Part shown: piece by piece, positions 3,700-36,400 of the stretch
Position numbering within the stretch: the first letter of the stretch is position 1
How the letters are laid out: each line of letters begins with the position of its first letter
Origin: Schmidtea polychroa
Taxonomy: Eukaryota
Reading direction: 5' to 3'
Assembly (NCBI GenBank): GCA_044892525.1
Contig: CM097885.1
Span: 31,808,001 to 31,872,000 of the forward strand
Length of the DNA stretch: 64,000 bases
Notes under the pieces: generated by a model
The model's input: only the letters and a program-made list of their open reading frames with translations
Databases searched by the model: none
Told to the model about the DNA's origin: nothing
Program-made: the position numbers and the translations under genes

Positions 3700-3960
3700 T
3701 TCTCTTACTAATAAGATTCCTTAAATTCCCTATATTTCTACCCTTAATTCATATTATTACAAATATTTCACTAAAATCATCAAATTTCCCTTAAATAACT
3801 CTATCTTTAAAGATTAGTATTTTATCGATAAATACTTTTAAAAGGATATATATTTCCCTCAAACTAATAAGATTTCTTAAAATCCCTTTAAATGACTATA
3901 ATTATATCTTTAATTCCTATTATCACACATATTTCACTAAAATCATCAAAAATCATTAAC
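3700..3960 (+). repeat. Degenerate ~180-bp repeat shared with the foldback spacer (21370-21850)
   Basis: Both places contain aaataactctatctttaaagattagtattttatcgataaata and ctaataagattccttaaa...aatgactata. Confidence 0.75.
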
Positions 3961-6055: not shown

Positions 6056-6410
6056 GGTACTTCCGTGTTATCTTACCCCCCAAAATTAAATTATAAAATA
6101 CAATTAAAATAATAATATAAAAATTGAGAGAATACATTATTGATGACGCTATTGAACATTATTGAACATGAATTTATTAAGGCTATCTGTGATTTATGTG
6201 AGTTTATGTGGCGCAAACGTGTTCTAAGCAACAGTGCCGATGTGTTCGACACTATTCTCAACGACATTGTGGTTTTCTGGCCACCTGGATGACCATTTAC
6301 AAACTCTTTACAAACATTTGCTGAGTTTGTAACTGTGATTTAGAAAATAAATATAATAATTGTGTTCTTTTTTAATTTAATTTTTGGTGGTAAGATAACA
6401 CGGAAGTACC
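6056..6410 (+). mobile_element. Non-autonomous Merlin (IS1016-related) DNA transposon, internally deleted
   Basis: TIRs GGTACTTCCGTGTTATCTTACC...GGTAAGATAACACGGAAGTACC. Perfect 8-bp TSD GAATTTTC (6048-6055, 6411-6418). Internal peptide LCEFMWRKR...DVFDTILNDIVVFWPPG* resembles the Merlin transposase C-terminus. Confidence 0.85.
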
Positions 6411-7659: not shown

Positions 7660-7825
7660 GTTATGATCGACCAGAAAGGCTTTCGATGGACATGAAAAAA
7701 CACAAACTTGTCCAATTGTTATCGGAGGTAACAAAAAATATCCTCAGAGATAATGTAAGGTCTGTTCTGCTAATAAAATATCTGGATATACTCGATATAT
7801 TTGTGAAAGCTGTACCATTATACAA
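7660..7825 (+). pseudogene. piggyBac (PGBD4-like) transposase C-terminal Cys-rich remnant
   Basis: RLSMDMKKHKL / IVIGGNKKYPQR*CKVCSANKISGYTRYICESC, with a frameshift and a stop. Confidence 0.6.
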
Positions 7826-10800
7826 ACTTACATAATATCAATGAAATCACCATTAAAAATACTAAATTTTACGTCATTTGAATTAAAATATATGAATATT
7901 AATTATCCCATTATTATTTTGTTATTTTAAATGTTTATAAAAACTTCATTGCTGCCTACATTTGAAAATGTCACTCGTTGTCTGTGTAAAAATGTGTGGT
8001 GGTTACCTCATGCTCAGGAGTAATTCGTTCGTTCGGTAATGTGTTAAATATCACTGGAGTATGATTAATAAATTTGTTGTGGTTGTCAGTGAAATTATTA
8101 TTTAACAATAATAACATGCTCCAGGCAGTATACATTTTTATTGATTGACACAATTGTTTGCCAATTTACAGTGGCACTGATAATTCAATATTACAACTTT
8201 GACTACTTTTTGCAACCCTTTGAGGTGAATAGCGCGTTTACAATATAACTTTGAATTCACAACTACTTGACTACTGTTTGGTTTCAATGATCGGTAAAGT
8301 CGATCTAGTTGCTTTCTTAACTTTAACTTGAATTTACTCGATAGCTTTAATATATTTTAAATCACTTCTCCTATAACTTCATAATTCACCATGAGTTTCG
8401 TTTTAATTCTGTTTTCTTCTTTTCTTTAAAACTTTGTTTCCTTTTTACTTTACAAATTTTGTCTCATTTTCTCCATTAGAAATTGCGTCTTTCGGCTCAG
8501 GTTGTGTTTCCTTTTATAGTCTGCAATCTAATGACACTAAATCCTATTGACTTCAGTTTAGATACCTTCTTCCCGTACATTCCCTTCGATAATCTACATT
8601 CTTCTATTATCTCTGGTATTATCTCTGTGTTATTAAAATTATCTTTCGACTTTACGCTTCTTAACATTTTAGAATAAGATTTTTTATCAAAATTTGTGTT
8701 AATTTGACTGATTCAATTTGATGGAGTTATTGTTAATTCGTTTTATTATATATACTCTGAGTTTATCCGACAAGATATTTTCTCCCTCTATGGGTACTGC
8801 TCACAATTGGTACTGCTCGTAAGGGTACTGGTCGTAAAGGTACTGGTATGTTTTAATGATTTTATTTAGGCAAATTTTTGGTTATTATTTAGCATTAAAT
8901 TCATTGGTAATTTTTAGAGTTAGCGGGATTTTACTAACATTATTACTAACCTTTTTGTGAATAATTGAAAGAATATTTTGAAATTTAACGTTTTAGTGTT
9001 AATTCTAAGACAAATTTAATTAATTTCTTGATAATTTGCTATATTTTATTGACTTTTTTTTAAATTTACTTTTAAATAAAAATTATTTTTAATGACAGTT
9101 AGGTTAATAATTAGAGTTTTTACAATAATCAAGTGATTATTATTTAATTTTTGTAAAAATTATTGTAAAATATACTGAAATTTGTGATTTTGAAAGATAT
9201 ATCACGTTATAATTGCTATATAATTAGCTGAATCGATGAAGAATTATGATAAATCAATATATTTCATCTCTAGTTAGGTATTTGATGGTAAATGTGGTGA
9301 AATATTTGTAGAAAATATTGATTTTAGTGAATTTTGATCTTTTAGTGGGCTCTTACTACATGAATTTAGATACTAAATTATTTCAATGGAAGGATGTCTG
9401 TAACAATTAAATAAAATTCATATTTTGAAGAATTTTCTATGGATTTTAAGAGAATTGATATATTAAAGGTCTGATATATTAAAGTCGGTTGGTTAAGATG
9501 GTAATATATGATTTTTAAGGGGGTGTTTAAAATGATAGAAATATTTGGTGAGGGATCGGTTAAGGTGGAAATGTTTGAAATCTCTATTTAAATCGACAAT
9601 GTTCTTATTGGTAAAATTTTAAAGGGAAATAGTCAGTATTTAGCTATGAATTAATAATAGTTCCTGTGAAATTATATCGTTTTAGAGGTTTATTAGGTTG
9701 TGATGAATGTTATTGCACAGTAATTTAGATTTATGTTTTAGAACCAGTTTTTTTATTAATTATCCACTGTTTTATTAAGTCGTTTAGGGTTAATGATCAA
9801 TTTACTTGGTTTTCACAATGAAATATTTGAAATCTTTAGAATTAATTGGGATTGATATCAAAGGTTATTGCTTTAAATTATTTACTTAAGAAGTTATTTT
9901 ATTCATTGTGGGGACATCAGTGACAAAACTTGAGAAATATTGACTTAAAAGTTGGAAATCGACAACGGCTAAAAAAAATTGATCTTTATTGAAGGAATTT
10001 TATGATTTTAATTAGAAATTAAATCGGTTGAATATCAGTTAATCTATTGAAGGAATATTGTTATCGGATGGATAAGTGATATTTTGCCAAATTACCTTTG
10101 CTAAATATTATTTTAAATCACTAAAAATGAGAAAATTAAGCACTATTCATAAATTGATGACCCAAAATATCAATGTTTTGGTTACTCAAACATCTTAAAT
10201 TTCTCGCAAAGATATATTACGTCTAATGATCATCTAATTAAATTAGAAAAGAATTGTAACCCTATATAAATATATATTTTTAACTAATAAGCACCTTATT
10301 TGGTTAAATGATAACCATATTTCTATTATGACTCCTTTAAATATTTTTGCCTCAAACAAATTTACTCCAAATGATAAAGAATTTAAAATTATCAATGAAT
10401 AATGACCATGTTTTTCTCATATTATTATCTATTGTAACGAACATTAGATGAATAAATTAATTTTTGCTTTAAATGACTACAAAGTTAACCAATAAATTAG
10501 TCGCTCGACATAAGTGTAAAGTTACATTTAAAATATTCACGATCATCTCACTAAATTACCTAAGAATTTCTAAATGATTAATATACCCTTGCGACATGTT
10601 GAATGTGACCAGTACCCTTGCCACCATTACCCTTAGGGGGACAGAATATCTTGCCGGATAAACTAGGAGTATATGGTCTTTATTGATATATCAAAATACT
10701 GTTATTTATAAATCAACTAAAAATACTCAAAAATACTATATTATTTTACTGAATGATACCTTAAATGTTTTTAATATACATATTTCTAAAATAAATCAAC

Positions 10801-11399
10801 AGTTCAAACCAACAACATGTATGCAAGACCACCCATTGTTAATTTATTCCCAGTGTCACGTCCCTCAAAAATACCGTGAGTGTTTTAACAAAACTGAGCT
10901 CAAAGAAACTTTCCAGATAACAACTCACCTGAATGTTTTGAACAAAAATGAGCGAAATTGAGAACAAACGATTAGATGGCGATTAAATTCTGGCCATAAC
11001 CCTAACAACATGAAAATTAAGATTTTAATTATTGAATTCGTTGTTTACTGCCTGGAAATACTAACAGAATATTTTTTAATTCAAAGAATCTTCATTATAA
11101 ATATTTGAATTTAAAAAATTAAATGAAGGATATATAAGTGTACATAAAATTATAATATTATATAAAATTATACTATATAATAATGTTAATGTTTAAATAT
11201 GCTTAAATAACTAAATTTACTACAATATTTTAATTATTTTACTTAGTAATGAAGAAAATGAATTATATGATTATGAAGAAGATGAACCAGACAAAATGGT
11301 GAAACACTAAATGACTTATGTTCTGGATTTAGAAATTTCTTATTAAAACATGAATTATAGAAGAAAATGAACCAGACAAAATGGTGAAACATTGCTATG

Positions 11400-11880
11400 T
11401 TCTATATTTTTTAAATGAATTAGCTGATTGTGGGTGTCCTTCAACATGAATTATCAGACTTAAATTATGTAAACTTTCAACGAATGTCAAGAAAAATGGG
11501 AGAAACCGATGTTTTAGCAATTAGATATTGTAAAGTACTACCTGAAGAATATTATTATTAATGTAAGACATGAATTAATTCTTTAAAATATATATATTAT
11601 ATTTAGGTATCTGTTTTATGGTGGGAAATGACATTGAAAAGTATACCACAAATAACAGTTGCCTAATTTATCAAGCCTGTGATGATAAAATGTTAGATAA
11701 TGTAAGTTAATTGCTTTTAAATCAATATAAATTTTAGCAATGATAGTTGACACCACATCAGAAACTAAGAAATATGTCCAATTCGCAAGATGTATTCCAT
11801 GAAATCACTATCAAATGGCCTGATGGAGAGATTAATTTTGAGATAGATTACCAACAGAAGAGCGAGAAAAATTTGTAAAT
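11400..11880 (+). pseudogene. Possible decayed spliced gene fragment (RING-finger-like Cys pattern)
   Basis: Two short GTAAG...TTTAG introns (11563-11606, 11702-11737) flank an exon reading CICFM...ACDDKM. CPIRK follows in a shifted frame; stops are present. Confidence 0.25.
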
Positions 11881-12072
11881 TAAATATAATAGGGTTGGGT
11901 GGGTCCTCTTTATCCCTTAATTAATATATATTTACAAGCTGATCGTCGTGGTGGGCGGTTGTAATCCAACTAGTGGGAGGCCTCTGTAAATATATATTTG
12001 TGTTAGTGAAAACATTAATTAATTTGGTTATAGTGCCAATGACGCATGTATTTTGAAATTATACGTTTCGAA

Positions 12073-12518: not shown

Positions 12519-13257
12519 TGAACTTGTATTTGAAATAATAATAATAATAATTTACGACATATTGAGTGTGAGTAGTACCCTTGTGACCATTACCCATAGG
12601 GGGACAGAATATCCTGTCGGATAGATTATAAATAATAATAACAACTTCCACGCGTGCGTTAATATTTTAAAAGAAAATATTGAAAATTAAAAAATAATAA
12701 TATGTAATCAACGATTAAAACAAATTATATTATTACGTATTCGATAATTAAAACAAAAAATTATATAATCAATGATTAAAACAAAATTATATAATCAACG
12801 ATTTAAACAAAATTAAATTATTATGTAATCGATAATTAAAACAAAATTATTAGTTCGGAAAATAAGAGGCATCGTTCTAAAAGTATGACGTAATCGTTCT
12901 AAAAATATTAGGCATCATTCTAAAAATTATTACGTAATCATTCTAAAAATATTAGGCACCGTTCTAAAAATATTAGGCATCGTTCTAAAAATATGACGTA
13001 ATCAATCTAAAAATATTAGACATCGTTCTAAAAATATTAGGCATCGTTCTAAAAATATGATGAGTCATTGTCTTTGTTCTAAAAATGTTCGGCATAGATT
13101 ACGTAATAGTTCTAAAAATATTAGGCATCGATTACGTAATAGTTCTAAAAATATTATGCATCGATTACGTAATAGTTCTAAAAAAAAATTTTCTCGGGGG
13201 GAGGGGGTATATGTGGTCTGGAGGGCCCCTGGTCTGGATGGCCCACATCCTACTACT
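12345..13257. mobile_element. Polinton/Maverick-like right terminus, copy A
   Basis: 21-bp subterminal array (GTTCTAAAAATATTAGGCATC), a G-run, then the end ...GGCCCACATCCTACTACT (reverse complement AGTAGTAGGATGTGGGCC). Confidence 0.65.
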
Positions 13258-13673
13258 ATAACTAATAATTAATTAGTATTCATTTCAACATTTAAATAGC
13301 GTTACAGCTATACATTGTTACATAGAAAATTATGTATTTAGATATTAAATTAGATATAATAATTTAGATATTAAAAACAACAATAATTCATCTAGTCATG
13401 GAATATGAAACAATAATTTCGATTTATTATAAAAACATCACAAATTGTCAACAGTGAAAATATTTGTGTTTTTATTTTGTCGGATAGACAAGGAGTATAT
13501 ACACCCATGTTAAACAACGTATGTGTATATAGAATGTGTGTGTAAAATTATCGCTCCTTATTGACAACTTCCTGTAAAGGCAAACACAGAATACTGCAAA
13601 CATAATAATACTCTACCCCATAACTTAGTATGTAAAAATTATTTAAGGTTTTTTCACTAATAATAATAATAAT

Positions 13674-13724
<51 letters not shown>

Positions 13725-14040
13725 GTTTAATGGGTTGTATATGTGTGTAAAAAATATTTGAGGTTTTCACTAATATTGATAATAATAATGGTTTATGAGT
13801 GTTTTTATGTTTTTGACTAATATTTGCAATAATAATAATGGTTAATGGGTTGTGTGTGTGTGTGTGTAGAAAATATTTTAGGTTTTCACTAATATTGATA
13901 ATAATAATTGTTAATGGGTTGTGTGTGTGTGTAAAAAAAAATTTTAAGTTTTTGACTAGTATTTGCAATAATAATAATATTGATAATAATAATTGTTAAT
14001 TGGTTGTGTGTGTGTTTTTATGTTTTTGACTAATATTTGC

Positions 14041-14127
<87 letters not shown>

Positions 14128-14240
14128 GTTTAATGGGTTGTATATGTGTGTAGAAGATATTTTAGGTTTTCACTAATATTGATACAAATAACTGTTAATG
14201 GGTCGTGTGTGTGTGTGTAAACCATATTTTAGATTTTTTG

Positions 14241-14330
<90 letters not shown>

Positions 14331-14695
14331 TGAAATTGTATTTGAAAATAATTTGCGACATGTTGATTGTGAGCAGTACCTTTGTGACCATTACCCTTAG
14401 GGGGACAGAATATCTTGTCGGATAGACTAGGAGTATATATAATAATAATCATAATAATAATATTAATAATCATAATAATATTGATTAAAACTTTGAAAAT
14501 AATTCTTTGAAAATAATACTTTGAACAATATTTGATGTAAAAGTTCCTGAAATAATCATGAAAATGTTGAAAATCGTGAAAATATTGAAAATGTAGAAAA
14601 TTATGAAAATATTGATAATTATTAAAAAATGCAAATGATGAAAATGTTGAAAATCATGAAATTGATTTAGAAATTAAGTTTTATGAATAATTGCA

Positions 14696-14760
<65 letters not shown>
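14041..14760. repeat. (AAT)n microsatellite tracts (14041-14125, 14240-14327, 14696-14760; also ~12470-12513, 13660-13722, 19816-19920, 22990-23070)
   Basis: Direct inspection. Confidence 0.95.
14353..14445 (+). promoter_or_regulatory. Type copy of a recurrent dyad+TATA cassette (nine copies between 8741 and 22545)
   Basis: 15-bp-period units (agtacc(c/t)ttgtgacc) + GGGACAGAATATCTTGTCGGATAGACTAGGAGTATATATAA. The repeat is seen directly; regulatory function is inference. Confidence 0.4.
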
Positions 14761-14761
<1 letters not shown>

Positions 14762-14957
14762 TTTGAAAATAACATCTTCCACACGGGCGTTAATATTTTA
14801 AAAGAAAATATTGAAAATTAAAAAATAATAATATGTAATCAACGATTAAAACAAATTATATTATTACGTATTCGATAATTAAAACAAAAAATTATATAAT
14901 CAATGATTTAAACAAAATTAAATTATTATGTAATCGATAATTAAAACAAAATTATTA

Positions 14958-15845
14958 GTTCTAAAAATATTAGGCATCGTTCTAAAAATATTAGGCATCG
15001 TTCTAAAAATATGACGTAATCATTCTAAAATTAAGAGGCACCATTCTAAAAATAAGAGGCACCATTCTAAAAATATTAGGCATCGTTCTAAAAGTATGAC
15101 GTAATCGTTCTAAAAATATTAGGCATCGTTCTAAAATTATTACGTAATCATTCTAAAAAATATTAGGCATCGTTCTAAAAATATGATGTAATCATTCTAA
15201 AAATATTAGGCATCGTTCTAAAAATATTAGGCATCATTCTAAAAATATTACGCATCGATTACGTAATAGTTCTAACAATATTATGCATCGTTCTAAAAAT
15301 ATTAGGCATCGATTATGTAATAGTTCTGACAATATTAGGCATCGTTCTAAAAATATGACGTAATCAATCTAAAAATATTAGGCATCGTTCTAAAAATATT
15401 AGGCATCATTCTAAAATTAAGAGGCACCATTCTAAAAATAAGAGGCACCATTCTAAAAATATTAGGCATCGTTCTAAAAGTATGACTTAATCGTTCTAAA
15501 AATATTAGGCATCGTTCTAAAAATATTAGGCATCGTTCTAAAATTATTACGTAATCATTCTAAAAATATTAGGCATTGTTCTAAAAATATGACGTAATCA
15601 TTCTAAAAATATTAGGCATCGTTCTAAAAATATTAGGCATCATTCTAAAAATATTAGGCATCGATTACGTAATAGTTCTAACAATATTGGGCATCGTTCT
15701 AAAAATATGACGTAATCAATCTAAAAATATTAGGCATCGTTCTAAAAATATTAGGCATCATTCTAAAAATATTAGGCATCGTTCTAAAAATATTAGGCAT
15801 CGTTCTAAAAATATAATGAGTCATTGTCTTTGTTCTAAAAATGTG
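14958..15845. repeat. 21-bp minisatellite (consensus GTTCTAAAAATATTAGGCATC), also at 12853-13185 and 16207-16367
   Basis: Dozens of head-to-tail copies with interspersed variants (atgacgtaatc, gattacgtaata). Confidence 0.95.
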
Positions 15846-16434
15846 ATGAGTCATCGTATGATAAAAATCTATATCTCATTAGAAAGTTCTTGCACAGAGC
15901 TTTAAAATAAGCTATCGATCAATATAATATGTTGGCGGGAACATTAATCTTTGGGATGAAAAAAAGTGTGAGCCCGCTGGGCCAATTAATAATATTTTGA
16001 CAAATAATAATAATTTAACTTTGAAAAGATGGTGGTCATTAAATGTTAATAACATTAAAACTATTAAATATATATAAAATACCTATAGCACATCTTAAAG
16101 GTCCTGCACTGGGCTTTAAGATGAGGTATCGTCCAATAAAATCTGATGGCGGGAACATTAACTTTTGGGATGAAAAAAAGTGTGAGCCCGCTGGGCCACT
16201 AATAATATGGCATCGTTCTAAAAATATGTGGCGTCGATTACGTAATAGTTCTAAAAAATATGTGGCTTCATTCTAAAAATATGTGGCATCGATTACGTAA
16301 TAGTTCTAAAAATATTAGGCCTTGATTACGTAATAGTTCTAAAAATATGTGACATCGTTCTAAAATTTTTTTTCCGGGGGGGGGTATATGTGGCCGGGGG
16401 AGCTCCTGGTCTAGATGGCCCACATCCTACTACT

Positions 16435-17530
16435 CAGGTGGTGTATATAATTATTCGGAGAAATTGCTCCACCATGAATTGAAGCATTGTCATGAATGAG
16501 ACGGTATCCTGTCCCATTCAATTTTATACTTAATTCATTAATAAAATTTTGGTAGGTATCCTTTTTGTAGGATCCTACAATTAATTGGTGATGAATTGCA
16601 CCTTTCACACCTATTGCTAACAGAAATGACATGTTTTTTCCTCGATTATTTGAAACTATGGAGTATATTCTTTCTCCTTTTTTCTTCCTTCCGTAGGTTT
16701 GTGTAGTCCACGTATTGAAGCCGCATTCATCAATATAAACGAGATTTTTATCTCGCCAGACTTCTTCGAGAAAGCGTGTGACATACTCCATTCGGATTTG
16801 AAGTACGCGATCTGAATTTCTTGCTTCCACACATGGCCTTACCTTTTTAACCGTTATTAAGTGATTTTTTAGAAATCTTGAAATAGCAGTTGTGGATGCC
16901 GAGCAATTTTGTTGTAAAAGGAAAATTCGCATTTCTTCTAACGTTGCATAAAAATTGGCTTCGACAAAATCCAAAAAACTATTTCCCTGTTCTTCTGAAA
17001 TAATTTGTTTTCTGCCACTTCTTTTTCCTTTTGTAATTTCGGCATATTTCTTATATTTGTAAATTATTGAAATAATTGAATTTTTGGGGATTCCGAGCAA
17101 TCTTCCAAATTCTTTATAATTGTCCCCATTTTCAAATGCATTAATAAGCCGAATTTTGTCTATTTCTGTAATTCTTTGAAAATATTAATTTGTTAAAATA
17201 ATTTATTAAAATTTACGATTTGCGATTTTTTTTCTGCAAATTCGAAGTTGTCGAAGGACCTTCTTCAATATTTGAAATGGTACCTTCACGCAAAGAAATA
17301 TCTGTTATACTGTAAAATATTTTAATATTTTATATTTTAATGAATAAATCATACATTGTCAGATCTTCAACTTCGAAAAAAGCCACTGTGACCTGTGAAA
17401 TATCTGTAAATCTAAAGAAATTTTATATTCCAAATTATTTTATAATTAAATCTTACGATGTATCTTCTCTTTTTTCCCTAAAGCTCAACGTAGAGCAGTC
17501 GGAATCTGATTCAAAAGTTTTTTTGTACAT
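16435..17530 (-). pseudogene. Spliced Tc1/IS630-family DDE transposase, 3'-truncated by a Polinton-like end
   Basis: Exons 17530-17457, 17411-17355, 17309-17217 and 17173-16435 join in frame over GT-AG introns of 45, 45 and 43 nt. HTH region, GKRSGRK, LVYIDECGFN (D1) and LIHDNASIHG (D2) are present. The sequence breaks at YIHHL, just before the expected PPYSP..NPIE motif. Confidence 0.85.
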
Positions 17531-17574
17531 AATTTTTTAAATAATTTAAAAATATTGATATGTTAATTATATGT

Positions 17575-19814
17575 AGTAGGTAGATAGTGGCCCACTGCCG
17601 CAACCGCCCCCTCCCCCCCTTGCGGCAACTTTTGATTACGCAATTGTTCCACACTATAGTGAGAGGGTCTCGATTGATCCAGGGATTTTCAATACAAAAA
17701 AATTTTTTCAATACAAAAATCCGACTATCACTAAAAAAGCCAAGGATTTTTCAGACTATAGTGAGGGGGTCTCGATGGTCCTGGGATTTTCAATACAAAT
17801 AAAATTTTTTCAATAGAAAAAGGCGGTCTTCAATAAAAAAGCATGGATTATTCTGACTATAGTGAGGGGGTCTCGATGGTCCTGGGATTTTCAATAGAGA
17901 AAGGCGGTCTTCAATAAAAAAGCATGGATTTTTCGAATTAAATTAAGGTGGGTCTCCTTGGTCCTGAGAATTTCAATAGAAAAAGGTGGTCTACACTAAA
18001 AAACGTGGTAAATTTTTCAATTAAAGTAAATAATGGTCCTAAAAAATTAAATTACAGTAAATTATGGGTCAAAAAATTAAATTCAAGTAAATAATGGTCA
18101 AAATTTTTGAATCAAAGTAATGAATGGGCTCAAATAACTAAATTAAGGTTCAAATTTTTAAATTAAAGTAAATAATGGTTCAAATTTTTAATTAATGTAA
18201 ATCAATGTCCAAATTTTTGAATTAAAGTAAATAATGGTCCAAATTTTAAAATTAAGTAATCAAAGTAAAAAATTAAAATTAAAGTTAAATAAGTAAATTA
18301 AAGTAATAATTTTTTAAATAAGTAAATTAAAGTAAATTAAAGTAAGATTTTAAAATTTATTAACAAAAAGTTGAAATAATAGAAGGTGTTTGAGAATTGA
18401 AATTTTTTAATGAAAATTTTAATGAAATATTTTTCAATGGTAATTTTTAATGGAAATTTTTATGGAATAATTTTTTAAGTTAATTTTTAATGGAAATTTT
18501 TAAGAAATATTTTTCAATGATAATTTTAGATGGAAATTTTTAAGATAATTTTTAATGAAAATTTTTATGAAATATTTTTCAAAGACAAATTTTAATAATA
18601 ATTCAACAACAAACCAACAACTTAGTACCAACAACCAGTAACTTACGAACATGTATTTGCAACCAGTACCTACAACTAGATACTAACAACCAGTTACCAG
18701 ATACCAAGTACAAGATACCAAATAATAACAACCGACAATTACCAAGTACTAAGCCATGTCAATTAGATACCAAGTACTTACAACCAACATCAACCAGATA
18801 CCTACAACTAGTTACTAACAACCAACTACTTACAACTAGTTACTAACAACCAGTTACCTGCTACCAAGTACTTACAACAAGATACCAAGTACTAAGCACT
18901 GTCAAATAGATACAAAACACTTACAACTAGATACCACGTACTAACTAACTCTCAAACAACTAGTTACTAACAATCAGTTACCTGCTACCAAGTACTAACA
19001 ACCAAAAACAAGCAACCAACTAGGTACTAGATACCAAGTACTAACAACCTACAACAACTAAGTACTAAGCATTATCAACCAAGTACCTAAAACCACCTAA
19101 CAAATACATACAACCAAGCATTAATTACCAACTACTAAGTACCTACCAAGTACATACAACCAACATCAACCAGATACCTACAACTAGATACTAACAACCA
19201 GTTACCAAGTACCTACAACCACCTACCCATTAACTAGCTACAACCAGCTAACAACTAGCTACCAACTACCAAGTACTAACAACCAACAACCAGCTAACAA
19301 CTAACTACCAGATACCAACTACTTACAACCAACAACTAAGTACTAACAACCAGCTAACAACTAGATACCTAGTACTAAGCATTGTCAACTAGATACCAAC
19401 CAGATGACCACATGAAATTATTGGTTAAATAAGTAAATTAATATTTAATTTTTAAATTAACTAATCAATGGTCTAAAATATTAAAGTCAATTTAAGATGA
19501 AAGTTTTCTGGAATTTTCAATGTTAATTTTAGATGCAAATCTTCGTCAATTAATCAATGACCACATGAAATTATTAGTTAAATATGAAAATAAGGATTAT
19601 ATTTAGTTGTTAAATTAAGAAATAAAGGATAAATAGGTAAATTAAGGATAAGTAAATTAAAGAAAACAATGGTTTAAATTTTTAATTAAAGCTAAATGAG
19701 TAAATTAAAGTAATGTAATAAGTAAATTAAACTAAGATTTTTAAATTTATTATCAAAAGATTGAATAACCACCAACTTTTTTGAGAAATGTAATTTTTAA
19801 TGAAAATTTAAATG

Positions 19815-19878
<64 letters not shown>

Positions 19879-20632
19879 TATAATAATAATAATAAAATTA
19901 ATAATAATTATAATAATAATTAAACATTTACCAACAATCGATTACTAAATATTTTTAACTAGGTGCTAACAAATAAGTACCAAATACTTACAACTAGATA
20001 CCAAGTACTAACTAACTCTCAAACAACCACATACTTACAACTAACTACTTACAATCAACTAAATATTCTTTATTATATTTTATGAAATGTATTTTTTAAA
20101 ATTAATTTTTTATCTATCTTCAAAAATATATTTAATTACAATCAGTAGAAAAACCTTTTCAAAATGTCTAAATTTAGCAAAAATGTTGATTTTCATCAAA
20201 AAACCACAACTTAACCACTTTTAAACATCACGTGAAATTCAAAATAATTTAAATTACAATGAAAGACTAATGAATTCTAATTTACAAAACATTCTTCTTT
20301 TAAATGATAACTACTGAATTATTATGACAAAGTAAAAATCACATTCAATAAATACTTATTGTTGATCAGTTTTATTATATATACTCTGAGTTTATCCGAC
20401 AGGATGTTTTGACGCCCCTAAGGGTACACGTCGTAAGGGTATTAGTCGTAAGGGTACTGGTCGTAAGGATATTGCTAACTCTCAACCCCCACCTACCCAT
20501 TAACTACCTAACAAGTACTAACAACCAAGTCTCAAACAACTAAATACTAAACACTTACAATCAACTAACAACCAGGTACTAAGCATTATCAACCTACAAC
20601 TATATAACAACAATCAGTAAACAACACTGGAC
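17575..20632 (+). repeat. Left arm (3058 bp) of the giant inverted repeat
   Basis: Reverse complement of 22278-25945, apart from scattered substitutions and repeat-copy differences. Confidence 0.95.
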
Positions 20633-22277
20633 CAACTACCAAATACAAGATACCAACAACTTAGTACCAACAATCAACTAACAACACATAAAAATAATAG
20701 CAATTAAATACAAAATACTCTTCATCACATACACTATCTTCTTATCAAAATCTAAAAAGTCAACCAACTACTTACAACCAACAACTATGTACTGACAAAT
20801 AGATCTTTAAAAGAAAATACTCATCACTTGAAAAATTGGATGAAAAATTAATTGAACTCAAAACATCAATAACTTGATAAAAATTGATTAAATAATTGTA
20901 AAAATTTAAATTATTCAAAATATACCAAATAATTATTATAAAAATTAAATTAATGGACAAGAAAAAATTCTAGTCATTAATCATCCAGTAAATAAAAAAA
21001 ATATTGATCATTCAAGTTAATATGAATCAACTAAGATAATAAATTAATAAAAATTTTGAAATAAGATCTAGTAGATAATTGATTTAGATTGAATAAATTA
21101 ATTAAAATAAAATTAATTTTAAGTATTTTTTTTAAAGTAATACATGTACTCAAATTGATTGACTGATTTCTCAATATATTCAAAAAATCAGTATAAATTC
21201 ATTACAATTATCAAAGTCAGCAATCTACAATAAAAATAATTATCATTAAATTCCAAAAGAGACTAGTTAGTTAATGATAACATCTAATAAACCAGTAAAT
21301 TCATTTAAATGACAATAATTGGTATATCCAAGTGTATTCTCCAATAAAAACATCTAAAAAGAATCATTTCCCCCAAAATATATCAATATTTAAAGATTGG
21401 TATCTTATCGATAAGTACTTGTTAAAGATCATATATTCCCCTCAAACTAACAAGATTCCTTAAAATCCCTTAAATGACTATATTTCTACCCTTAATCCAT
21501 ATTATTACAAATATCATCAAAAAAGCATCAAATTTCCCTGAAATAACTCTATCTTTAAAGATTAGTATTTTATCGATAAATATCCTTAAAAGGTTATATA
21601 TTTACCTGACTAACAAGATTCCTTAAAATCTCTTAAATGACTATATTTCAACCCTTAATTCGTATTATTACAAATATCATCTAAAAAGCATCAAATTTCC
21701 CTGAAATAACTCTATCCTTAAAGATTGATATTTTAATGATAAGTACCCTTAAAAGATCATATATTCCCCTCAGACTAATAAGATTCCTTAAAATCCCCTT
21801 TAAATGACTATAATTCTAACTTTAATTCGTATTATCACGAATATTTCCCTATAAAACATGTATAGGGACAGAATATTTTGTCGGATAAACTCCGAGTATA
21901 TATAATAAAACTCATTCAAATTTATCATTGAATCAGTAAAATTATCATAAATTTCGATAAAAATTCTAAAGTGGTAAGCAATGAAAAGAGAAATATTCTT
22001 TAAACTTTGATAAAATTAACAATGAAGGTGGTAAGAATCTTCATTAAAGTGAGGAAATTATTCATTACTCGATGATAAATTCAAATGGGTGAAAATAATT
22101 GGTAGAATAATTCATTAATGGATCATTGAATCGGCATAGATAAGAAGAAGGTTGATAAAAATGGAAATATATTAATTGAATTTATTTAAAAATAATTCAT
22201 AAAATTCATAAATTTAATAAAAAAATCTTAAAAGAAATATTTGTGGGGAATAATTAATCAAAATCAGCGGAATATCA

Positions 22278-23031
22278 GTCCAGTGTTGTTTACTGATTGT
22301 TGTTATATAGTTGTAGGTTGATAATGCTTAGTACCTGGTTGTTAGTTGATTGTAAGTGTTTAGTATTTAGTTGTTTGAGACTTGGTTGTTAGTACTTGTT
22401 AGGTAGTTAATGGGTAAGTGGGGGTTGAGAGTTAGCAATATCCTTACGACCAGTACCCTTACGACTAATACCCTTACGACGTGTACCCTTAGGGGCGTCA
22501 AAACATCCTATCGGATAAACTCAGAGTATATATAATAAAACTGATCAACAATAAGTATTTATTGAATGTGATTTTTACTTTGTCATAATAATTCAGTAGT
22601 TATCATTTAAAAGAAGAATGTTTTGTAAATTAGAATTCATTAGTCTTTCATTGTAATTTAAATTATTTTGAATTTCACGTGATGTTTTAAAGTGGTTAAG
22701 TTGTGGTTTTTTGATGAGAATCAACATTTTTGCTAAATTTAGACATTTTGAAAAGGTTTTTCTACTGATTGTAATTAAATATATTTTTGAAGATAGATAA
22801 AAAATTAATTTTAAAAAATACATTTCATAAAATATAATAAAGAATATTTAGTTGATTGTAAGTAGTTAGTTGTAAGTATGTGGTTGTTTGAGAGTTAGTT
22901 AGTACTTGGTATCTAGTTGTAAGTATTTGGTACTTATTTGTTAGCACCTAGTTAAAAATATTTAGTAACCGATTGTTGGTAAATGTTTAATTATTATTAT
23001 AATTATTATTAATTTTATTATTATTATTATA

Positions 23032-23071
<40 letters not shown>

Positions 23072-25945
23072 CATTTAAATTTTCATTAAAAATTACATTT
23101 CTCAAAAAAGTTGGTGGTTATTCAATCTTTTGATAATAAATTTTAAAATCTTAGTTTAATTTACTTATTACATTACTTTAATTTACTCATTTAGCTTTAA
23201 TTAAAAATTTAAACCATTGTTTTCTTTAATTTACTTATCCTTAATTTACCTATTTATCCTTTATTTCTTAATTTAACAACTAAATATAATCCTTATTTTC
23301 ATATTTAACTAATAATTTCATGTGGTCATTGATTAATTGACGAAGATTTGCATCTAAAATTAACATTGAAAATCCCAGAAAACTTTCATCTTAAATTGAC
23401 TTTAATATTTTAGACCATTGATTAGTTAATTTAAAAATTAAATATTAATTTACTTATTTAACCAATAATTTCATGTGGTCATCTGGTTGGTATCTAGTTG
23501 ACAATGCTTAGTACTAGGTATCTAGTTGTTAGCTGGTTGTTAGTACTTAGTTGTTGGTTGTAAGTAGTTGGTATCTGGTAGTTAGTTGTTAGCTGGTTGT
23601 TGGTTGTTAGTACTTGGTAGTTGGTAGCTAGTTGTTAGCTGGTTGTAGCTAGTTAATGGGTAGGTGGTTGTAGGTACTTGGTAACTGGTTGTTAGTATCT
23701 AGTTGTAGGTATCTGGTTGATGTTGGTTGTATGTACTTGGTAGGTACTTAGTAGTTGGTAATTAATGCTTGGTTGTATGTACTTGTTAGGTGGTTTTAGG
23801 TACTTGGTTGATAATGCTTAGTACTTAGTTGTTGTAGGTTGTTAGTACTTGGTATCTAGTACCTAGTTGGTTGCTTGTTTTTGGTTGTTAGTACTTGGTA
23901 GCAGGTAACTGATTGTTAGTAACTAGTTGTTTGAGAGTTAGTTAGTACGTGGTATCTAGTTGTAAGTGTTTTGTATCTATTTGACAGTGCTTAGTACTTG
24001 GTATCTTGTTGTAAGTACTTGGTAGCAGGTAACTGGTTGTTAGTAACTAGTTGTAAGTAGTTGGTTGTTAGTAACTAGTTGTAGGTATCTGGTTGATGTT
24101 GGTTGTAAGTACTTGGTATCTAATTGACATGGCTTAGTACTTGGTAATTGTCGGTTGTTATTATTTGGTATCTTGTACTTGGTATCTGGTAACTGGTTGT
24201 TAGTATCTAGTTGTAGGTACTGGTTGCAAATACATGTTCGTAAGTTACTGGTTGTTGGTACTAAGTTGTTGGTTTGTTGTTGAATTATTATTAAAATTTG
24301 TCTTTGAAAAATATTTCATAAAAATTTTCATTAAAAATTATCTTAAAAATTTCCATCTAAAATTATCATTGAAAAATATTTCTTAAAAATTTCCATTAAA
24401 AATTAACTTAAAAAATTATTCCATAAAAATTTCCATTAAAAATTACCATTGAAAAATATTTCATTAAAATTTTCATTAAAAAATTTCAATTCTCAAACAC
24501 CTTCTATTATTTCAACTTTTTGTTAATAAATTTTAAAATCTTACTTTAATTTACTTTAATTTACTTATTTAAAAAATTATTACTTTAATTTACTTATTTA
24601 ACTTTAATTTTAATTTTTTACTTTGATTACTTAATTTTAAAATTTGGACCATTATTTACTTTAATTCAAAAATTTGGACATTGATTTACATTAATTAAAA
24701 ATTTGGACCATTATTTACTTTAATTCAAAAATTTGGACATTGATTTACATTAATTAAAAATTTGAACGATTATTTACTTTAATTTAAAAATTTGAACCTT
24801 AATTTAGTTATTTGTGCCCATTCATTACTTTAATTTAAAAATTTGAACCTTAATTTAGTTATTTGAGCCCACTTTAATTCAAAAATTTTGACCATTATTT
24901 ACTTTAATTTAATTTTTTAGGACCATTATTTACTTTAATTGAAAAATTTACCACGTTTTTTAGTGTAGACCACCTTTTTCTATTGAAATTCTCAGGACCA
25001 AGGAGACCCACCTTAATTTAATTCGAAAAATCCATGCTTTTTTATTGATAGTCGGATTTTTGTATTGAAAATATCCTGAGACGTTAAATTACCATGCTTT
25101 TTTATTGAAGACCGCCTTTCTCTATTGAAAATCCCAGGACCATCGAGACCCCCTCACTATAGTCAGAATAATCCATGCTTTTTTATTGAAGACCGCCTTT
25201 TTCTATTGAAAAAATTTTATTTGTATTGAAAATCCCAGGACCATCGAGACCCCCTTACTATAGTCTGAAAAATCCTTGGCTTTTGTAGTGGTAGTCGGAT
25301 TTTTGTATTGAAAAATATTTTTTGTATTGAAAATCCCTGGATCAATCGAGACCCTGTCACTATAGTGTGAATTATCCATGCTTTTTAGTGGTAGTCGGAT
25401 TTTTGTATTGAAAAAAATTTTTTTGTATTGAAAATCCCAGGACCATCGAGACCCCCTCACTATAGTCTGAAAAATCCTTGGCTTTTTTAGTGGTAGTCAG
25501 ATTTTTGTATTGAAGAAATTTTTTTGTATTGAAAATCCCAGGACCATCGAGACCCCCTCACTATAGTCTGAAAAATCCTTGGCTTTTTTAGTGGTAGTCA
25601 GATTTTTGTATTGAAGAAATTTTTTTGTATTGAAAATCCCTGGATCAATCGAGACCCTCTCACTATAGTGTGAATAATCCATGCTTTTTAGTGGTAGTCG
25701 GATTTTTGTATTGAAAAAAATTTTTTTGTATTGAAAATCCCAGGACCATCGTTTTTGTATTGAAAATTTTTTTTTGTATTGAAAATCCCAGGACCATCGT
25801 TTTTGTATTGAAAAAAATTTTTTGTATTGAAAATCCCAGGACCATCGAGACCCCCTCACTATAGTGTGGAACAATTGCGTAATCAAAAGTTGCCGCAAGG
25901 GGAGGGGGGGGGGGGGTTGCGGCAGTGGGCCACTATCTACCTACT
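22278..25945 (-). repeat. Right arm (3668 bp) of the giant inverted repeat
   Basis: Mirror of the left arm, with extra copies of a ~120-bp subterminal unit at ~25040-25860. Confidence 0.95.
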
Positions 25946-27793
25946 ATATGTTAATCAATCTGAATTTCGCATGAAAAACACTTTACTTAATTTTGTATGT
26001 ATTTTTCATTATGTGTGCTGTGCTTGTATGCTTAATTATTTTCTCTCACTTTTTAGATTCCTATAATAAATATGTTAAATTTCGCAGCATTAAATTTCTA
26101 CACACAGGTAAGTTTGTGTGTTCCTATAATATATATTTATTGATTTTTTTTTAGATTATAGATAATGTTATATTTCGCGGTTAGGTGTACAAGTTGTATT
26201 TAACTCGCGTGCAGTCAGCGGGTTAATAAGTTGCTTTGCTTTAATATTTATCCGACTTAACTTTTGTTATGATATGAAAAATATAAAAAAAAGAAAATAA
26301 AAGAAAATTTTAAAAAATTATATATAAAAAATAAATCTAAGAATAATCTCTAGGGTATGTGATATATATACTAATATTTGCTTATCTATCAAATACCTTC
26401 CTTAAACATCTTAATGTGCTAACTGCCGTTTTTATATATGTGAAGCATTATTATAGCAAAGTTCTGTAGAATTGAATATATGTATAAAAAATTTAATGTT
26501 AAAAAGAAACTAGTATGTAAAATAATAACATAGTAAAGAAATTAGAAAATTTCAAATTTTTTATTAATTTTTATGATTATAGGTACAAAAAAATTTAATT
26601 TTGTTTAACTTTAATTTAAAAAGGCTAAAATGACTTTTTTTACCTAAATCAGAAATTTGCATAAATGCCTTGGGAAAATTTTGTAATTAGAAATTACATT
26701 TTCTCTGAATTTCCTCAAATGAAATAGTTTATCTTCTAAGAAAAAAAGACTAAATTATTTGCAAATGAAAATAATTTAAATTATATTTCATAGTAAAAAT
26801 TAATTCCGGCAATTATAAATTGGGTGAGTATATAGCTCTATCAGCGGTGGGTCCGAGGGGTGGGAGTGGAATCAATTGCCCCCTTGGTTATTCTTCAAAA
26901 TAAGCGAATGAGTTTGATGATTAGCCGTTATGCAGTGAGACGACTTATTCAGTAGGCTTAAGTTTTGGTACAGATTTCACTTGCTGCTGGAGTTTATAAT
27001 AGCCATCTTTCATAGTATTTGTTCCCAACGTACATTTTAAGATTTAATTTCCAATAGTATACCATGTTCGGGAGGGAGGGGAAGTAAGGAAAAGGTGTAT
27101 GATATGGCACAGTATTGATTTTAACAAAATTTAGGGTGAGTGTTTCGTATTTGTATTTCTCCCCAAGGAAGTTTATAGATTCTCCATTGAGCTTTATAAA
27201 TATTAGATTGGATCTTATAAAACAATTTAAAATATGTATTACATATAGTAAATGTATATGATACATTGACATATAATTTACTCTAACCCTTGGTATATAT
27301 GCAAAGTTAATTTCAAGTGTTGATGCCTTCGACATCAAACAAATTCAAATATTAGGATTTAGATTTGCATATGTTGAGTGATGCGTATTGATACACCTTT
27401 TCCAAATTCAATCCGCTATAAGCAGAAAACGTGTAGACTAACCGACGAAGACATATAAAATTATTAAGAGCATACTGTCAAAATCATGGGGGAAAGTGAA
27501 ATATATCGGATTATATCGACAAACATCGTGATAAAAAGTGAGAACACAATTTTGAGTTAATTGCGTGTTGGCGTGTTTTCTATGCAACCACAAAAACTGT
27601 CAGGAGAATATTATGTTCAAATTGTCTGCTTATAGCAAATTCAATTTTAAAATGGTCATATTCATTCACATAGTCATCACAGATTTTTGTCGCAGTAATT
27701 TAATACTTCAAAAAAATTTTGCACTGAAGTGTTAATATTTTAATTTATTATTAAAGAATAATTATTTATAATTATAAAAATATCATCAGCTAA

Positions 27794-31250: not shown

Positions 31251-31917
31251 AGCAGGTAAGGAACTTGTATGGTCTATGCCAACATAAATCTTGTAAAGCT
31301 ACTAAAGATAGTCAGGTGTAGTAGATAATCGGTTAATTAATTTAAAACGAATTCTAATTTGGGTTCATTTTATTAATGGCGATAGCTACTTTTAAGTAAT
31401 ATAGACCCCAAAAGAGATTTTTAAATCTAACAAATTAGTAAACTTGGCTTCATTTTGTAGTTATGCTTAGATAATTGGGTTAAAACATTTCATGAAAAAC
31501 TTAGTTTTAGTACAGCATTGGGAAAATTTTTTTAATTTAAAATAGATATTTTTCCTATTGAAGGTTCGATAACTGGGTCTAAGTTTTTAAATTTTTATTT
31601 TAATAATTTTAAAACATTCATGATTTCTCTAAAGATATAAGAAAATAAATTACAAACATTTAATATTAAAATATAGTTGAAACATTCTTGGTTAAAAAAA
31701 GTTTTTCAAGTATTTAAATGTTATAAATAAAATTATTAATTGTATAGAATGTTTGTATATAAAAAATGTAAATGTATTGAAATTAAAAATTTAATCTTAT
31801 CTAAATTATTAAAATACATCGAATTTAAATTAATTAATGTTGACTTTGTTTTACTTACTTATAAAGTTTTATTCTGCCATCTTGTTTATTAATTAATTGT
31901 ATCCTATTTAATTTTTA

Positions 31918-32786
31918 ATGTCAAACAGAAATGATAATGATCGATCATCTGAACAATTTAGGAAATTGTTTATTGGAGGATTAAGTTTTGTTACAACCGA
32001 AGATGCTCTCAAGTCTCATTTTGAGCAATGGGGAGAACTTGTCGATGTTGTGGTAATGCGTATGGGTGGCAAAAATGGAAAATCCAGGGGATTCGGATTT
32101 GTCACTTATAAAGATCCTGATATGGTTGATGCAGCTCAAGCCAGTAGGCCGCATATAATTGATGACAGAACAGTTGAGACCAAAAGGGCAATGCCTCGCG
32201 ATGAAGCAAATTCTGCAGAGTCTCATATGACTGTTAAAAAGTTATTTGTCGGAGCATTGAAAAAAGAAGTTGTAGCCGATGATTTAAGAGACTATTTTGG
32301 TCGATTTGGAAATATAACTGAGTGTGAAATTATTACATGGAGAGAAACTGGTGAATCCCGTGGTTTTGGGTTTGTGACATATGACGACTATGATCCAGTT
32401 GATAAAATTTTACTTCTCAAACCACATTATATAGACAACAAGCGCTGTGAAGTTAAAAAGGCACTGAGTAAAGAAGAGGCGAGGTCCTTAAAAGCTAAGG
32501 AAAGCATGAGTACAATTGGTAAGTCCAAATTTCCTTCTATGTCACAATCTAATGGTGGAATGATGGGTATATATTTATTCAATTTTAATATTAGTTAAAA
32601 GTTAATTAAGGCTTTATGGGTGATATGCGAAACGAAATAAATAATCGTTATGATAATTTTGGTTATCAGGATTATGATGATAGGTTTGGTCGTTATCCTA
32701 ATCAGGGTTACAGTGGAGGGCCTGTGAGAGGAAATTTGAGTTACAGGAATCAGCCATATAGTGGAAGGATGAGGCGAGATTATTAA
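31918..32786 (+). CDS. hnRNP A/B (hnRNP A1/A2-like) RNA-binding protein, 274 aa; exons 31918-32566 and 32611-32786
   Basis: Two RRMs (LFIGGL/RGFGFVTY; LFVGAL/RGFGFVTY), RTVETKRAMPR linker, and a 44-nt GT-AG intron. The Gly/Tyr-rich C-terminus has an M9/PY-NLS-like GPVRGNLSYRNQPY. AATAAA at 33061-33066. Confidence 0.93.
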
Positions 32787-33155: not shown

Positions 33156-33452
33156 TCAAATAAAAAATAATTTGTCATGATGAAATTCGTTGATCAGAAT
33201 TTGTGATTCACTGGCGTCCGTTCTTGTACTATGTCCTGATGTAGTACTGCTGCTGTCATCATCAGATAGTCCAATCAGTGTTCTTCCTCTGAAAGCTGCT
33301 AAATGTGCGTAGTAAGTGGGTGCAGGATATGAAACGCTTCTGGTGCATCTCGCATAAATATGGCACAAAAAGTAAGTAAAGCTCTGCAATTCATCTGATC
33401 CCCAATTATTTTCATCAAAAAGGACATGGTAATGGGCAGGTTTTGAAGTTCC
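33156..33452 (-). CDS. ago: Argonaute last exon (PIWI end, catalytic His)
   Basis: [55 protein letters not shown]...KLFFI*. Confidence 0.95.
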
Positions 33453-36400
33453 CTTAATAAAATTAATTAATCACTTTAATTTTAGATTTTTATTTGGTAA
33501 TTTAAAGGCAATGAAGTTGAAAATAAAAACTGTTACTGTATTAAATTATTTAATAAATATTTGTCAATTGTAAATATTTTTTACTTGTATGCCTTCGTGA
33601 GAGCAGAGGTAAAAATCAAATTCCCTACAATGTGTTATATCTTTGTCCACTATAGTTCCTGAAGGAACATTGCCGCTTTTACCTATTCCATCTCGTCTAA
33701 AGTAGCAATAAAATAGAAAATATTTAATTATAATTACGGATTTTGAGGAAAAAATCGAATTTTGTGTCTTTTTTGAACAACAATATATGTTATAGGAGGT
33801 TGATAATTCTTTTCCAATTTTTGGCATGCATTTTGAATAGCAATTATTTCATGCTTGAATACAATATCAAATTGCCCTTCAGACACACCGTCTCGGTAAA
33901 AAATCAAACGTTTGGGTTTTAACTGCTTGTTAGCTTTGTAGAATGTCTAAAAATTTCAATGGTAATTATGTTACGAATAAACTTCAATAACTCAAAAATT
34001 GATAATTAAATAGATTTGGCGTCGACAAACCTTTCTATGATTTCCTATATTTTCATTGGCGGATAAAAATACAAATTTTAATGTTGGATTTCCTGGGTTC
34101 TTATAACAACCGCGAGCCTATAATTCTCTTCAGAACCTACTAATGTGTGAACCTATAACTATGATAATGTACCTACTGACTTGCCAAACGTTAAATTGAA
34201 GTCACTCAGTACGGAACAGCAATAGTCAGTGCCCTGAAAATAATAGGGATACAGGAACACTGAATCATTCTTTTGAATGTAGTGAAAGTTAACTAGCCAA
34301 TGTGGTTTTATATATAGGTGAACCGATCATGCAAGGGTGATCGCCACATTAGATCCAGTTATTTCGATACATCCAAAATTGTCGACCCGGTGATTCAACG
34401 CAATGGCTTGTTTAGTCATATGGTCAATCTTCTTTTGACGATGATTACAAATGATCATTAACATTCTCTAAGCCAGAATGTGAAAAATTCACCAGTTAGG
34501 CAAGTCAAGGTCCCAGAAGTATAATTTAATGCACATTAAAATACCCCCAGAATTTACCTTATTAACCAAGTACTTTTAAATGTTTTAGAAACGTCATATA
34601 CGTTTATAGATTAGCAAAAATTTAAGTGAATAATTAACTCATAATGACAATTTACTCTGTCAGAATACGGAATATGCGTAATTAATAATTAGCGAAATTA
34701 TTGTCATGCGCAGTGCGCGAATGGATTCAATTTCATATGAAGCAAAAAAAGAAGGCTAAGAAAAAGGAGAAAAATAATTAGTTAAAATGAAATGAAAAAA
34801 AACACTGAAAAGTATAAAATTCTAAATGGAAACTGGGAAAAGATTCGCAAAATAATAAAAGAAATAGAAAAAGAGGAAATATTTATAGAAAAAATAAAAA
34901 GGCTAAAAAAAGGAGAAAAATAATTAGTTAAAATGAAATGAAAAAACACTGAAAAGTAAAAAATTCAAAATGGAAACAGAGAAAAGATTCGCAAAATAAA
35001 ACAAAGAAAAAATGGAAACGGAAAAGATAACAAAAACTTTTTTGCCGCGAAATTATTCTCCTAAGCGGATGCTACACTATCAAGGCGAAGAAATGAAACC
35101 TGGTTAGCCTAACAGGGCGAAAAAAAGGGTTAATTTTGACTTGACGATTGGAATCAAATATGGAAAAGACAAGCGGAAAGAAAAATAAAAGTAAAACAAG
35201 GAAATGCTTGCACCCGGGTGGCAGATAGGCTAGGCACAACTCTGGAATTTTGTATTGAAATCAATTAGAGACCTAGAACATTTTCAGTAAAAAAATTACC
35301 ATTAATAGGTTATGAACCATATCCTCCATTTCCAATACAATTTCAATTATCGATCTTTCTTTTTTTGATAACTGCTGACGAATAAGAGCACTATACATTG
35401 TTGCATTATGATCTAAACTTCCGACCATCGCAGCAATACTTTTTGATAAATCATTTTTTGTAGAAGCAGGATGTGTAACATCAATTCCAAATACCATAAA
35501 TGAATCTTTAATAGGCGTGAACAATTTATTTCTTATCTGACTTAGTTCCCAATTTATTCCTCCTAATTTACCATTCACCTTCAGCATTATGTTTCCTAAA
35601 TAAATATCAAAATAAATATTTCTATCCTATTCATAAAAATCCCTAAAGTACTAACAAGAAGTGGGCAGGAAACATAAGATAAAAGAGCGAATGCAAACAT
35701 TGTAATCTTTTTTATAATTTCTAAAAATTAAAATTATTTCCTTTTTTTTATACTTTTTGTTAAATATCGATTTTATATAAAATAATTTAAATAAAATTAC
35801 AAAAAATCAAACGCAATTGGAACTTGTAAAATTGTTCTAAGATAGAATTGATGAGAAAAATACCATAAAAGAAACAAATTGTAGAAAAAGCATGAAAAGC
35901 ACTAAAATATTCAATTACAAGAAAATCGAAAATTAATTCATTAATTGAATTATTAGTGTATTAAACATTGGAAGGGTTCTGTTGTCCTAAAATAAGTAAT
36001 CTTTATTTTTAATCTTTATGGCGATTTAATATATTCATGAAAATCAAGAAAGTAACATAGTAAACCATAATAGAGTTTAACAATTAACGTAATTACCATG
36101 AAACTGTTTATGAAAATAATTTGTTTCAAAATTTATTTTAGTGTATTTTTTTAAATTCAGCAACTAAAATAAAGTTTAGTTAATTTTCAGGGATTACATT
36201 TGGGCTGCAGAAATAACTAAGCGAAAACGACAACTTCATTTTGTAAATTAATTAAATTAAATTAAAATTGTCTTTCATAAATAATAATTGTTTGTTAAAA
36301 ATAAAATTGTTTTATGTAATATTTTAATAGCATGAAAAGGTTAACAATGAAGTTGTTGGGTATGTTGTAGTCGCGGTCTGTGATTGTTAACTGCCAATTA

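Follow-up and report, generated by a model that had tools for sequence, protein, structure and literature searches.

A gene-less palindromic element with Maverick-like ends inserted in a high-copy repeat of Schmidtea polychroa

In the passages cited here, intact vertebrate Mavericks (Polintons) are described as ending in (AGT)2 or (AG)3, as flanked by 6-bp target duplications and as carrying terminal inverted repeats (TIRs) of 46-1447 bp, with the terminal repeat expected to serve jumping-back initiation (PMC8097293); passages of bioRxiv 2023.08.22.554363 and PMC6431247 also supply Maverick/Polinton hallmarks. A panhandle model of Polinton replication is on record as a proposal (PMC8097293). 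For protein-primed replicons, the cited extracts present panhandles as a standing, unproven model for restoring end homology, for which direct evidence is lacking even in the model phage. According to the same body of extracts, Mavericks are usually low-copy, and at least one studied genome held no non-autonomous copies. Here we describe an element of a different build, an 8.4-kb palindrome without genes that lies at 17575-25945 of a 64,000-nucleotide window of Schmidtea polychroa (contig CM097885.1 of assembly GCA_044892525.1, positions 31,808,001 to 31,872,000, forward strand). All coordinates below are those of this window.

The nearest published case, as far as the cited parts of the sources reach, is that of butterfly polintons with ~2-kb TIRs that bear genes, together with mobile polintons lacking polB (bioRxiv 2025.02.07.637071). 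Portions of three further reports describe defective products: subgenomic phi29 DNA that arises by template switching (PMC4974454), and the helper-dependent defective genomes of adenovirus 12 SYREC (PMC2396429) and the snapback genomes of adeno-associated virus (AAV; PMC10924063). Type 2 foldback Mutator-like elements (MULEs) such as Muta1 are treated in the cited sections of PMC5499845, and sections of PMC3014272, PMC4046053, PMC5499653, PMC11886824 and bioRxiv 2024.01.15.575659 complete the literature basis. A full-text literature search, with the founding paper, Repbase and preprint supplements outside its reach, found no gene-less palindromic Maverick, and in the text returned by a full-text phrase search the wording non-autonomous Polinton or Maverick was used for Tlr1 only. 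Kapitonov and Jurka 2006 and Repbase are said to list non-autonomous Polintons, and an earlier description is possible.

The element measures 8371 bp, its coordinates proved exact on re-check, and 80.3% of it is one inverted repeat, with arms of 3058 and 3668 bp around a 1645-bp spacer, exactly as an original prediction made from the sequence had it. It ends AGTAG..CTACT, in line with the predicted AGT...ACT termini, the outermost 31 bases are identical at both ends, and the predicted ATATGT duplication is present and exact on both sides. Tandem repeats account for about half of the element (4146 of 8371 bp). We read it, with a probability of roughly 0.55, as a clean, gene-less and mostly palindromic copy of a high-copy family, one that likely borrows its polymerase and integrase from a Maverick/Polinton in the same genome and in which the two arms were likely rewritten from each other during copying. 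The element, its parts and the host repeat around it are laid out as follows.

17376-17568: host repeat, left part, high-copy by contig depth (outer limit approximate)
17569-17574: left copy of the target duplication, ATATGT (uninterrupted target found in the public run X9, described below)
17575-20632, plus strand: left arm, 3058 bp
17575-17590, plus strand: terminal word AGTAGGTAGATAGTGG, exact only at the element's two ends (2 exact among 4 matches at up to 3 mismatches)
17596-17627, plus strand: 8-bp stem enclosing a C-rich tract
17653-17896, plus strand: 101-bp subterminal array, 2.4 units on the left (on the right, 6.2 units plus a 48-bp triplication)
18019-18292, plus strand: 30/59-bp AT-rich array, in which each arm holds a unit absent or duplicated in the other
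18398-18603, plus strand: 13/40-bp array, of equal length in the two arms
18600-19400, plus strand: CA-rich degenerate repeat, strand-skewed
19816-19920, plus strand: AAT microsatellite, 24 bp longer than its right-arm counterpart
20379-20399, minus strand: internal motif (CGGATA, 7 bases, GAGTATAT), outward-facing, promoter-like by inspection only
20633-22277: spacer, 1645 bp, whose opening 150 bp prolong the left arm's CA-rich repeat by 8-mer sharing
21389-21844, plus strand: 163-bp array in the spacer, with an 83% homologue at 3712-3950
21881-21901, plus strand: the internal motif again, in a diverged second copy (69% similarity, inverted, between the module 21869-22004 and 20281-20411)
22277-22278: abrupt inner junction, the point at which the right arm was attached or a deletion was sealed
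22278-25945, minus strand: right arm, 3668 bp
22511-22531, plus strand: internal motif, mirror copy
25123-25847, minus strand: right 101-bp array, with a 303-bp higher-order unit and the 48-bp triplication
25946-25951: right copy of the target duplication, ATATGT
25952-26218: host repeat, right part, by contig depth (outer limit approximate)

In its gene content the element does not qualify as a Polinton. The longest stop-to-stop frame has 147 amino acids and is composed of the 101-bp repeat (longest frames in 50 shuffles: mean 86, maximum 114 amino acids), and a six-frame read-through of the left arm and spacer returned no transposon or viral family from Pfam, the sole match in the six frames being ORC5_C, under the cut-off, on the AAT microsatellite. 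PHROGs matched none of the six frames of 19400-22293. Frames, Pfam and PHROGs thus agree that the element holds none of the genes of an autonomous Maverick/Polinton (protein-primed polymerase, retroviral-type integrase, ATPase, protease, capsid), and the earlier statement that it has no credible open reading frame stands. An Rfam search of positions 1-27000 matched nothing within the element, no tRNA-like gene occurs in the window, and folding of 20400-21800 gave nothing distinctive, in an analysis run with no shuffle control. From its ends and its footprint we infer a link to Mavericks, and the element most likely acts as a Polinton passenger.

We took advantage of public runs to place the element within its family. 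Among the 24 runs listed, 20, from seven studies, contain all or part of the stretch, and six contain at least half of its words. Four runs from four studies (X1, X4, X8 and X9), all of them contigs, were placed on 12800-27700; X1 is possibly the source sample and X9 is RNA by guess only, and runs with a small share of the stretch (a second organism, sediment metagenomes) were excluded from use. Summed contig depth, which is not a copy number, reaches about 1e6 in X1 and about 1e5 in X4 across the whole element, spacer included, as compared with 92-794 in X1 and 69-137 in X4 at 26219-27212. Every part of the element, the spacer among them, plainly belongs to a very abundant repeat family, one of many copies and without coding capacity.

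The same runs bear on the insertion itself. In two X9 contigs, position 17574 is followed at once by the right flank, of which they contain the first 8 letters. In X8, a contig with a depth of 65.8 covers 25945-26085 and has 90 letters beyond the match, and the single X8 contig at 17533 is equally deep; we infer that these two placements are one contig joining both flanks across an empty target. Since the uninterrupted target is observed, only 6 bp were duplicated at insertion. The uninterrupted form may stem from a different copy of the host repeat rather than from an empty allele at this locus. The element is a real, clean and ordinary-looking insertion, into another high-copy repeat, of an unusual family, and what had been claimed of it is supported to this extent: it is mobile, cis-only and cleanly inserted, and it has hallmarks of the Polinton type (AG..CT ends with a short repeat, 6-bp duplication). 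The host repeat, a short one with a small hairpin near 26201-26227, showed no terminal inverted repeat.

A gap-tolerant alignment of the two arms contains 16 substitutions over about 2980 aligned bases, a divergence of 0.5%, and eight length differences, of which six lengthen the right arm (by 2, 196, 303, 60, 44 and 59 bp) and two the left (by 30 and 24 bp). All eight fall within the terminal C-tract or tandem arrays. The arms do differ, as had been noted, by a few substitutions and by repeat-copy number. The claim of recent mobility needs a qualifier: the arms have drifted apart by 0.5%, and array length has changed eight times. The substitutions are split between the outer arrays (8 of 706 bases) and the inner part (8 of 2274).

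The arms were also compared with the family. The variant analysis covers the 40 listed of 372 variant rows, with each arm row mapped to its mirror position. Eleven of these rows lie in the arms, and in ten of them, representing nine distinct sites, the letter in the window is common to both arms. At seven of the nine listed shared sites the alternative letter forms the majority in X1 and in X4 alike, and at 20228 and 22835 it stands at 97-100%. One listed row is private to the left arm, and the right arm carries the family letter there. Given that letters rare in the family sit on both arms, one arm must have been copied from the other once those letters existed, and equalisation of the arms took place in cis, later than the origin of this lineage.

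The ends elsewhere in the window bear on the Maverick link. The first 25 bases at the ends at 13257 and 16434 resemble the end of the element (5 and 8 of 2000 shuffles, respectively, reach the score), and all five ends in the window have a C-tract close to the terminus. An internal motif with fixed spacing occurs at eight sites in the window, three in the element and five in its neighbours, by a pattern that was built from those sites.

A cycle in which such a copy could be made begins with the protein-primed polymerase of a helper, which would start at the AGTAG end, a short repeat that suits jumping-back initiation. Strand displacement would release a single strand, whose 3-kb arms could snap into a long stem with a 1.6-kb loop. 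The growing strand would then switch to its own earlier arm, or the stem would be repaired, and one arm would overwrite the other. The helper's retroviral-type integrase would insert the duplex and duplicate 6 bp, and after insertion the arms would drift apart by point changes and array slippage.

Several observations weigh against a Maverick-dependent copy with arms rewritten during copying. The element's end resembles that at 2993 only marginally (79 of 2000 shuffles), and its terminal AGTAGG is unlike the published (AGT)2 or (AG)3. Exact-pattern scans, of a collection without the species' own genome, found no gene-bearing element with this end. Three neighbouring ends have no partner in the window; the 6-bp duplication expected of a non-autonomous Maverick/Polinton is seen for one copy only. 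No contig among the matches listed spans the element or bridges its inner junction or either junction between element and flank. Arm-to-spacer depth, which is not a copy number, stands near 1 in three runs (0.95, 1.05, 1.10) and at 2.19 in X9, the expected value being 2 if each pair of arms has one spacer. The letters shared by the arms show that equalisation happened once or more, but not that it happens in each cycle, and gene conversion in the chromosome would yield the identical picture. Moreover, the sites near 19443-19461 fall inside an internal 80% duplicate, and only 40 of the 372 variant rows are considered. The outer arrays diverge more than the inner arms (Fisher p = 0.03, for a split chosen post hoc), and each arm owns an array unit missing from the other, which is unexpected of a single recent end-to-end copy without later slippage; rapid minisatellite slippage could explain both. 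As a separate caveat, the base outside each end of the element is complementary too (T..A), so that a 4-bp duplication (TATG) with TAGT ends, an alternative that the original prediction overlooked, fits this copy equally well.

We also entertained a bolder and more doubtful version of Maverick dependence, in which the elements are integrated forms of a distinct class of gene-less polintovirus satellite DNAs, with several end types and a shared promoter-like motif of their own. Their giant self-complementary arms would snap back after strand displacement and let them out-replicate the helper, with one arm rewritten from the other in every round. If true, that would put the panhandle step of Polinton replication on record in a genome for the first time.

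Among the rivals, the one that survives best, though we think it unlikely, accepts a Maverick-dependent element and has its arms kept alike by the host, through chromosomal gene conversion or hairpin repair after insertion. Long inverted repeats 1.6 kb apart are good substrates for gene conversion, and the inner arms are indeed more alike than the outer arrays. However, the eight inner differences are scattered over 2.3 kb without visible tract edges, and they have built up unrepaired, so that conversion has been slow at most.

An improbable alternative is a foldback derivative of a cut-and-paste superfamily, whether FB/MULE- or P-like or, on the 4-bp reading, Academ-like. In the cited sections of PMC5499845, the classic foldback design is one of modular arms that bear subterminal tandem repeats, and this element has that design. 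MULEs leave 8-10 bp according to the same sections, a footprint expected of FB/MULE foldback elements, whereas the duplication here is of 6 bp, a flank match with a chance of about 7e-4 at the local composition. TAG..CTA ends with a duplication of 3-4 bp do formally fit this copy; we take both the TAG..CTA end word and the 4-bp duplication to be features of Academ-like elements. Yet the bases before the other three AGTAG ends in the window are T, G and A, so that T precedes only one of three related ends; this places the end of the element at AGT and favours the 6-bp reading. In addition, in place of the AGTAGG found here, the canonical Maverick word (AGT)2 is read at the two related neighbouring ends, 13257 and 16434.

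The inner junction speaks to the origin of this particular copy. The opening 150 bp of the spacer have 42% of their 8-mers in common with the left arm, other spacer windows having at most 6%, whereas the right junction at 22277/22278 is abrupt (2.8% 8-mer sharing). Because the CA-rich repeat runs on into the spacer, left arm and spacer form one continuous 4.7-kb piece, and the element has the geometry of a copy-back product: one end and a continuous interior, followed by the mirror of that end. To this extent the original copy-back proposal is supported, although the same arrangement would result if a longer gene-less palindrome had suffered a deletion. That junction also speaks for a very improbable rival, in which copy-back from one end of an autonomous Polinton made the element directly, as a single event. 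Against it, the 4.7 kb from the end hold no gene remnant, whereas the source passages give intact vertebrate Mavericks TIRs of 46-1447 bp with genes inside, and all parts of the element are high-copy; the idea of a defective copy taken straight from an autonomous Polinton is for these reasons not supported. The absence of gene remnants from 4.7 kb and, as a weak second point, the arm-to-spacer depth of about 1 in three of four runs favour a gene-less parent over an autonomous one, the depth hinting weakly at a doubled spacer in most members of the family. This copy is probably a derivative of a longer palindrome, itself gene-less, in which one asymmetric event closed at 22277/22278, whether by deletion or by a copy-back switch. 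Our best reading is that it is a shortened member of a non-autonomous, Maverick-dependent palindromic family. A separate candidate, an older decayed palindrome axis near 21140, was rejected: similarity there is confined to the motif module, and with the module removed the score (-89) falls within the range of shuffles (-111 to -71).

That the element is an artefact of assembly, through chimeric reads or the collapse of an inverted duplication, is hardly credible even with no read or contig spanning the element among the matches listed, given arms that differ at 16 sites and in 8 array lengths, an array unit exclusive to the right arm that reappears in loose contig ends of X8 and X9, and the observation of both an exact duplication and an uninterrupted target.

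The window also holds gene-less stretches related to the element. The ends at 13257 and 16434 are on the minus strand, carry the (AGT)2 word and are accompanied by 21-bp subterminal arrays (12859-13184 and 14958-16357). The end at 16434 interrupts a Tc1-like DDE_3 gene (16411-17184, minus strand), the remainder of which was not found in the window. The 220-bp flank past the end at 13257 (13258-13477) is an inverted copy of 1907-2114, at 94% overall and 100% over the inner 95 bp, and begins exactly at the element end; it looks as if arm copying once overran the end into host flank, or as if a rearrangement started at the end. A third end type, AGTAGGG, belongs to a unit of ~515 bp with subterminal repeats (2993-3507), set between 21-bp direct repeats at 2970-2990 and 3508-3528. 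Old inverted homology of 67-80% joins 4103-5021 and 9206-10075, and the 163-bp spacer array has an 83% counterpart at 3698-3950; judged by such similarities, these families have non-coding modules in common. No gene-remnant family was found in six frames of the neighbouring stretch 5000-12003. A match to the 5' Alu part of metazoan signal recognition particle RNA lies at 11938-12036 in a neighbouring gene-less stretch (E = 3e-4, under the gathering score).

The eight motif sites start at 8750, 10654, 12419, 13480, 14418, 20379, 21881 and 22511, with a partial copy at 12617, and the motif has a TATA-like tail. Twice it forms a back-to-back pair, 1.5-1.9 kb apart. No long ATG frame lies downstream of the nine motif-like sites, the longest being 71 amino acids within a repeat. 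The motif may be a relic of a promoter, or else a site of binding or of packaging. Exact-pattern scans of the collection for the element end, the neighbouring end and the motif gave three loci, which were set aside as chance matches within phage coding genes, and otherwise no match.

Elsewhere in the window, an hnRNP A/B-like RRM gene (31912-32786, plus strand) stands tail to tail with an Argonaute gene (33156-35626 and beyond, minus strand), with short introns; the pair would point to an AT-rich animal genome. Broken frames resembling a DNA transposase, with no Pfam match, occupy 41994-44121 (minus strand), and a broken reverse transcriptase element with an RVT_1 match, which we take from its motifs to be Penelope-like, lies at 56820-58092 (plus strand). 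Three short palindromes, perfect or decayed, occur at 45230-45420, 50078-50259 and 61057-61234, and a 990-bp element with 292-bp inverted arms (99%) at 54001-54990.

What this copy adds is read-based evidence of a clean target and of arm equalisation against the family. Rare letters common to two 3-kb arms make the panhandle question testable from sequence, and the comparison of arms within and between copies separates rewriting coupled to replication from chromosomal conversion and locates the points of switching. The element further suggests that Mavericks can drive abundant cis-only parasites that are invisible to gene-based screens. Should the Maverick link fail, it would be a large foldback transposon of modest interest.

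Set beside known systems, the element is like Mavericks/Polintons in its AG..CT ends with a short repeat, its 6-bp duplication, its long inverted repeats and its insertion as a unit, and unlike them in having no polymerase, integrase, ATPase, protease or capsid gene. It is also smaller, at 8.4 kb compared with 13-25 kb, and its arms of 3.1 and 3.7 kb compare with TIRs of 100-1500 bp (46-1447 bp in vertebrates), as given in the extracts cited. With the butterfly polintons it shares inverted repeats extended inward to kilobases and mobility without a polymerase of its own; those elements, however, retain core genes even inside their TIRs, whereas this one has none and is 80% palindrome. Subgenomic phi29 DNA, SYREC (a palindrome with viral ends) and the AAV snapback genomes are likewise cis-only, helper-dependent and symmetric or end-derived, but they are transient products of the laboratory or of infection, while the element is integrated, inherited and high-copy, with tandem-repeat modules of its own. 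Foldback transposons, of which Drosophila FB is one, resemble it in their long modular arms with subterminal tandem repeats that differ in copy number, but their duplications measure 8-10 bp and their transposase is of the MULE or P type, in contrast to the 6 bp and the Maverick-like ends seen here.

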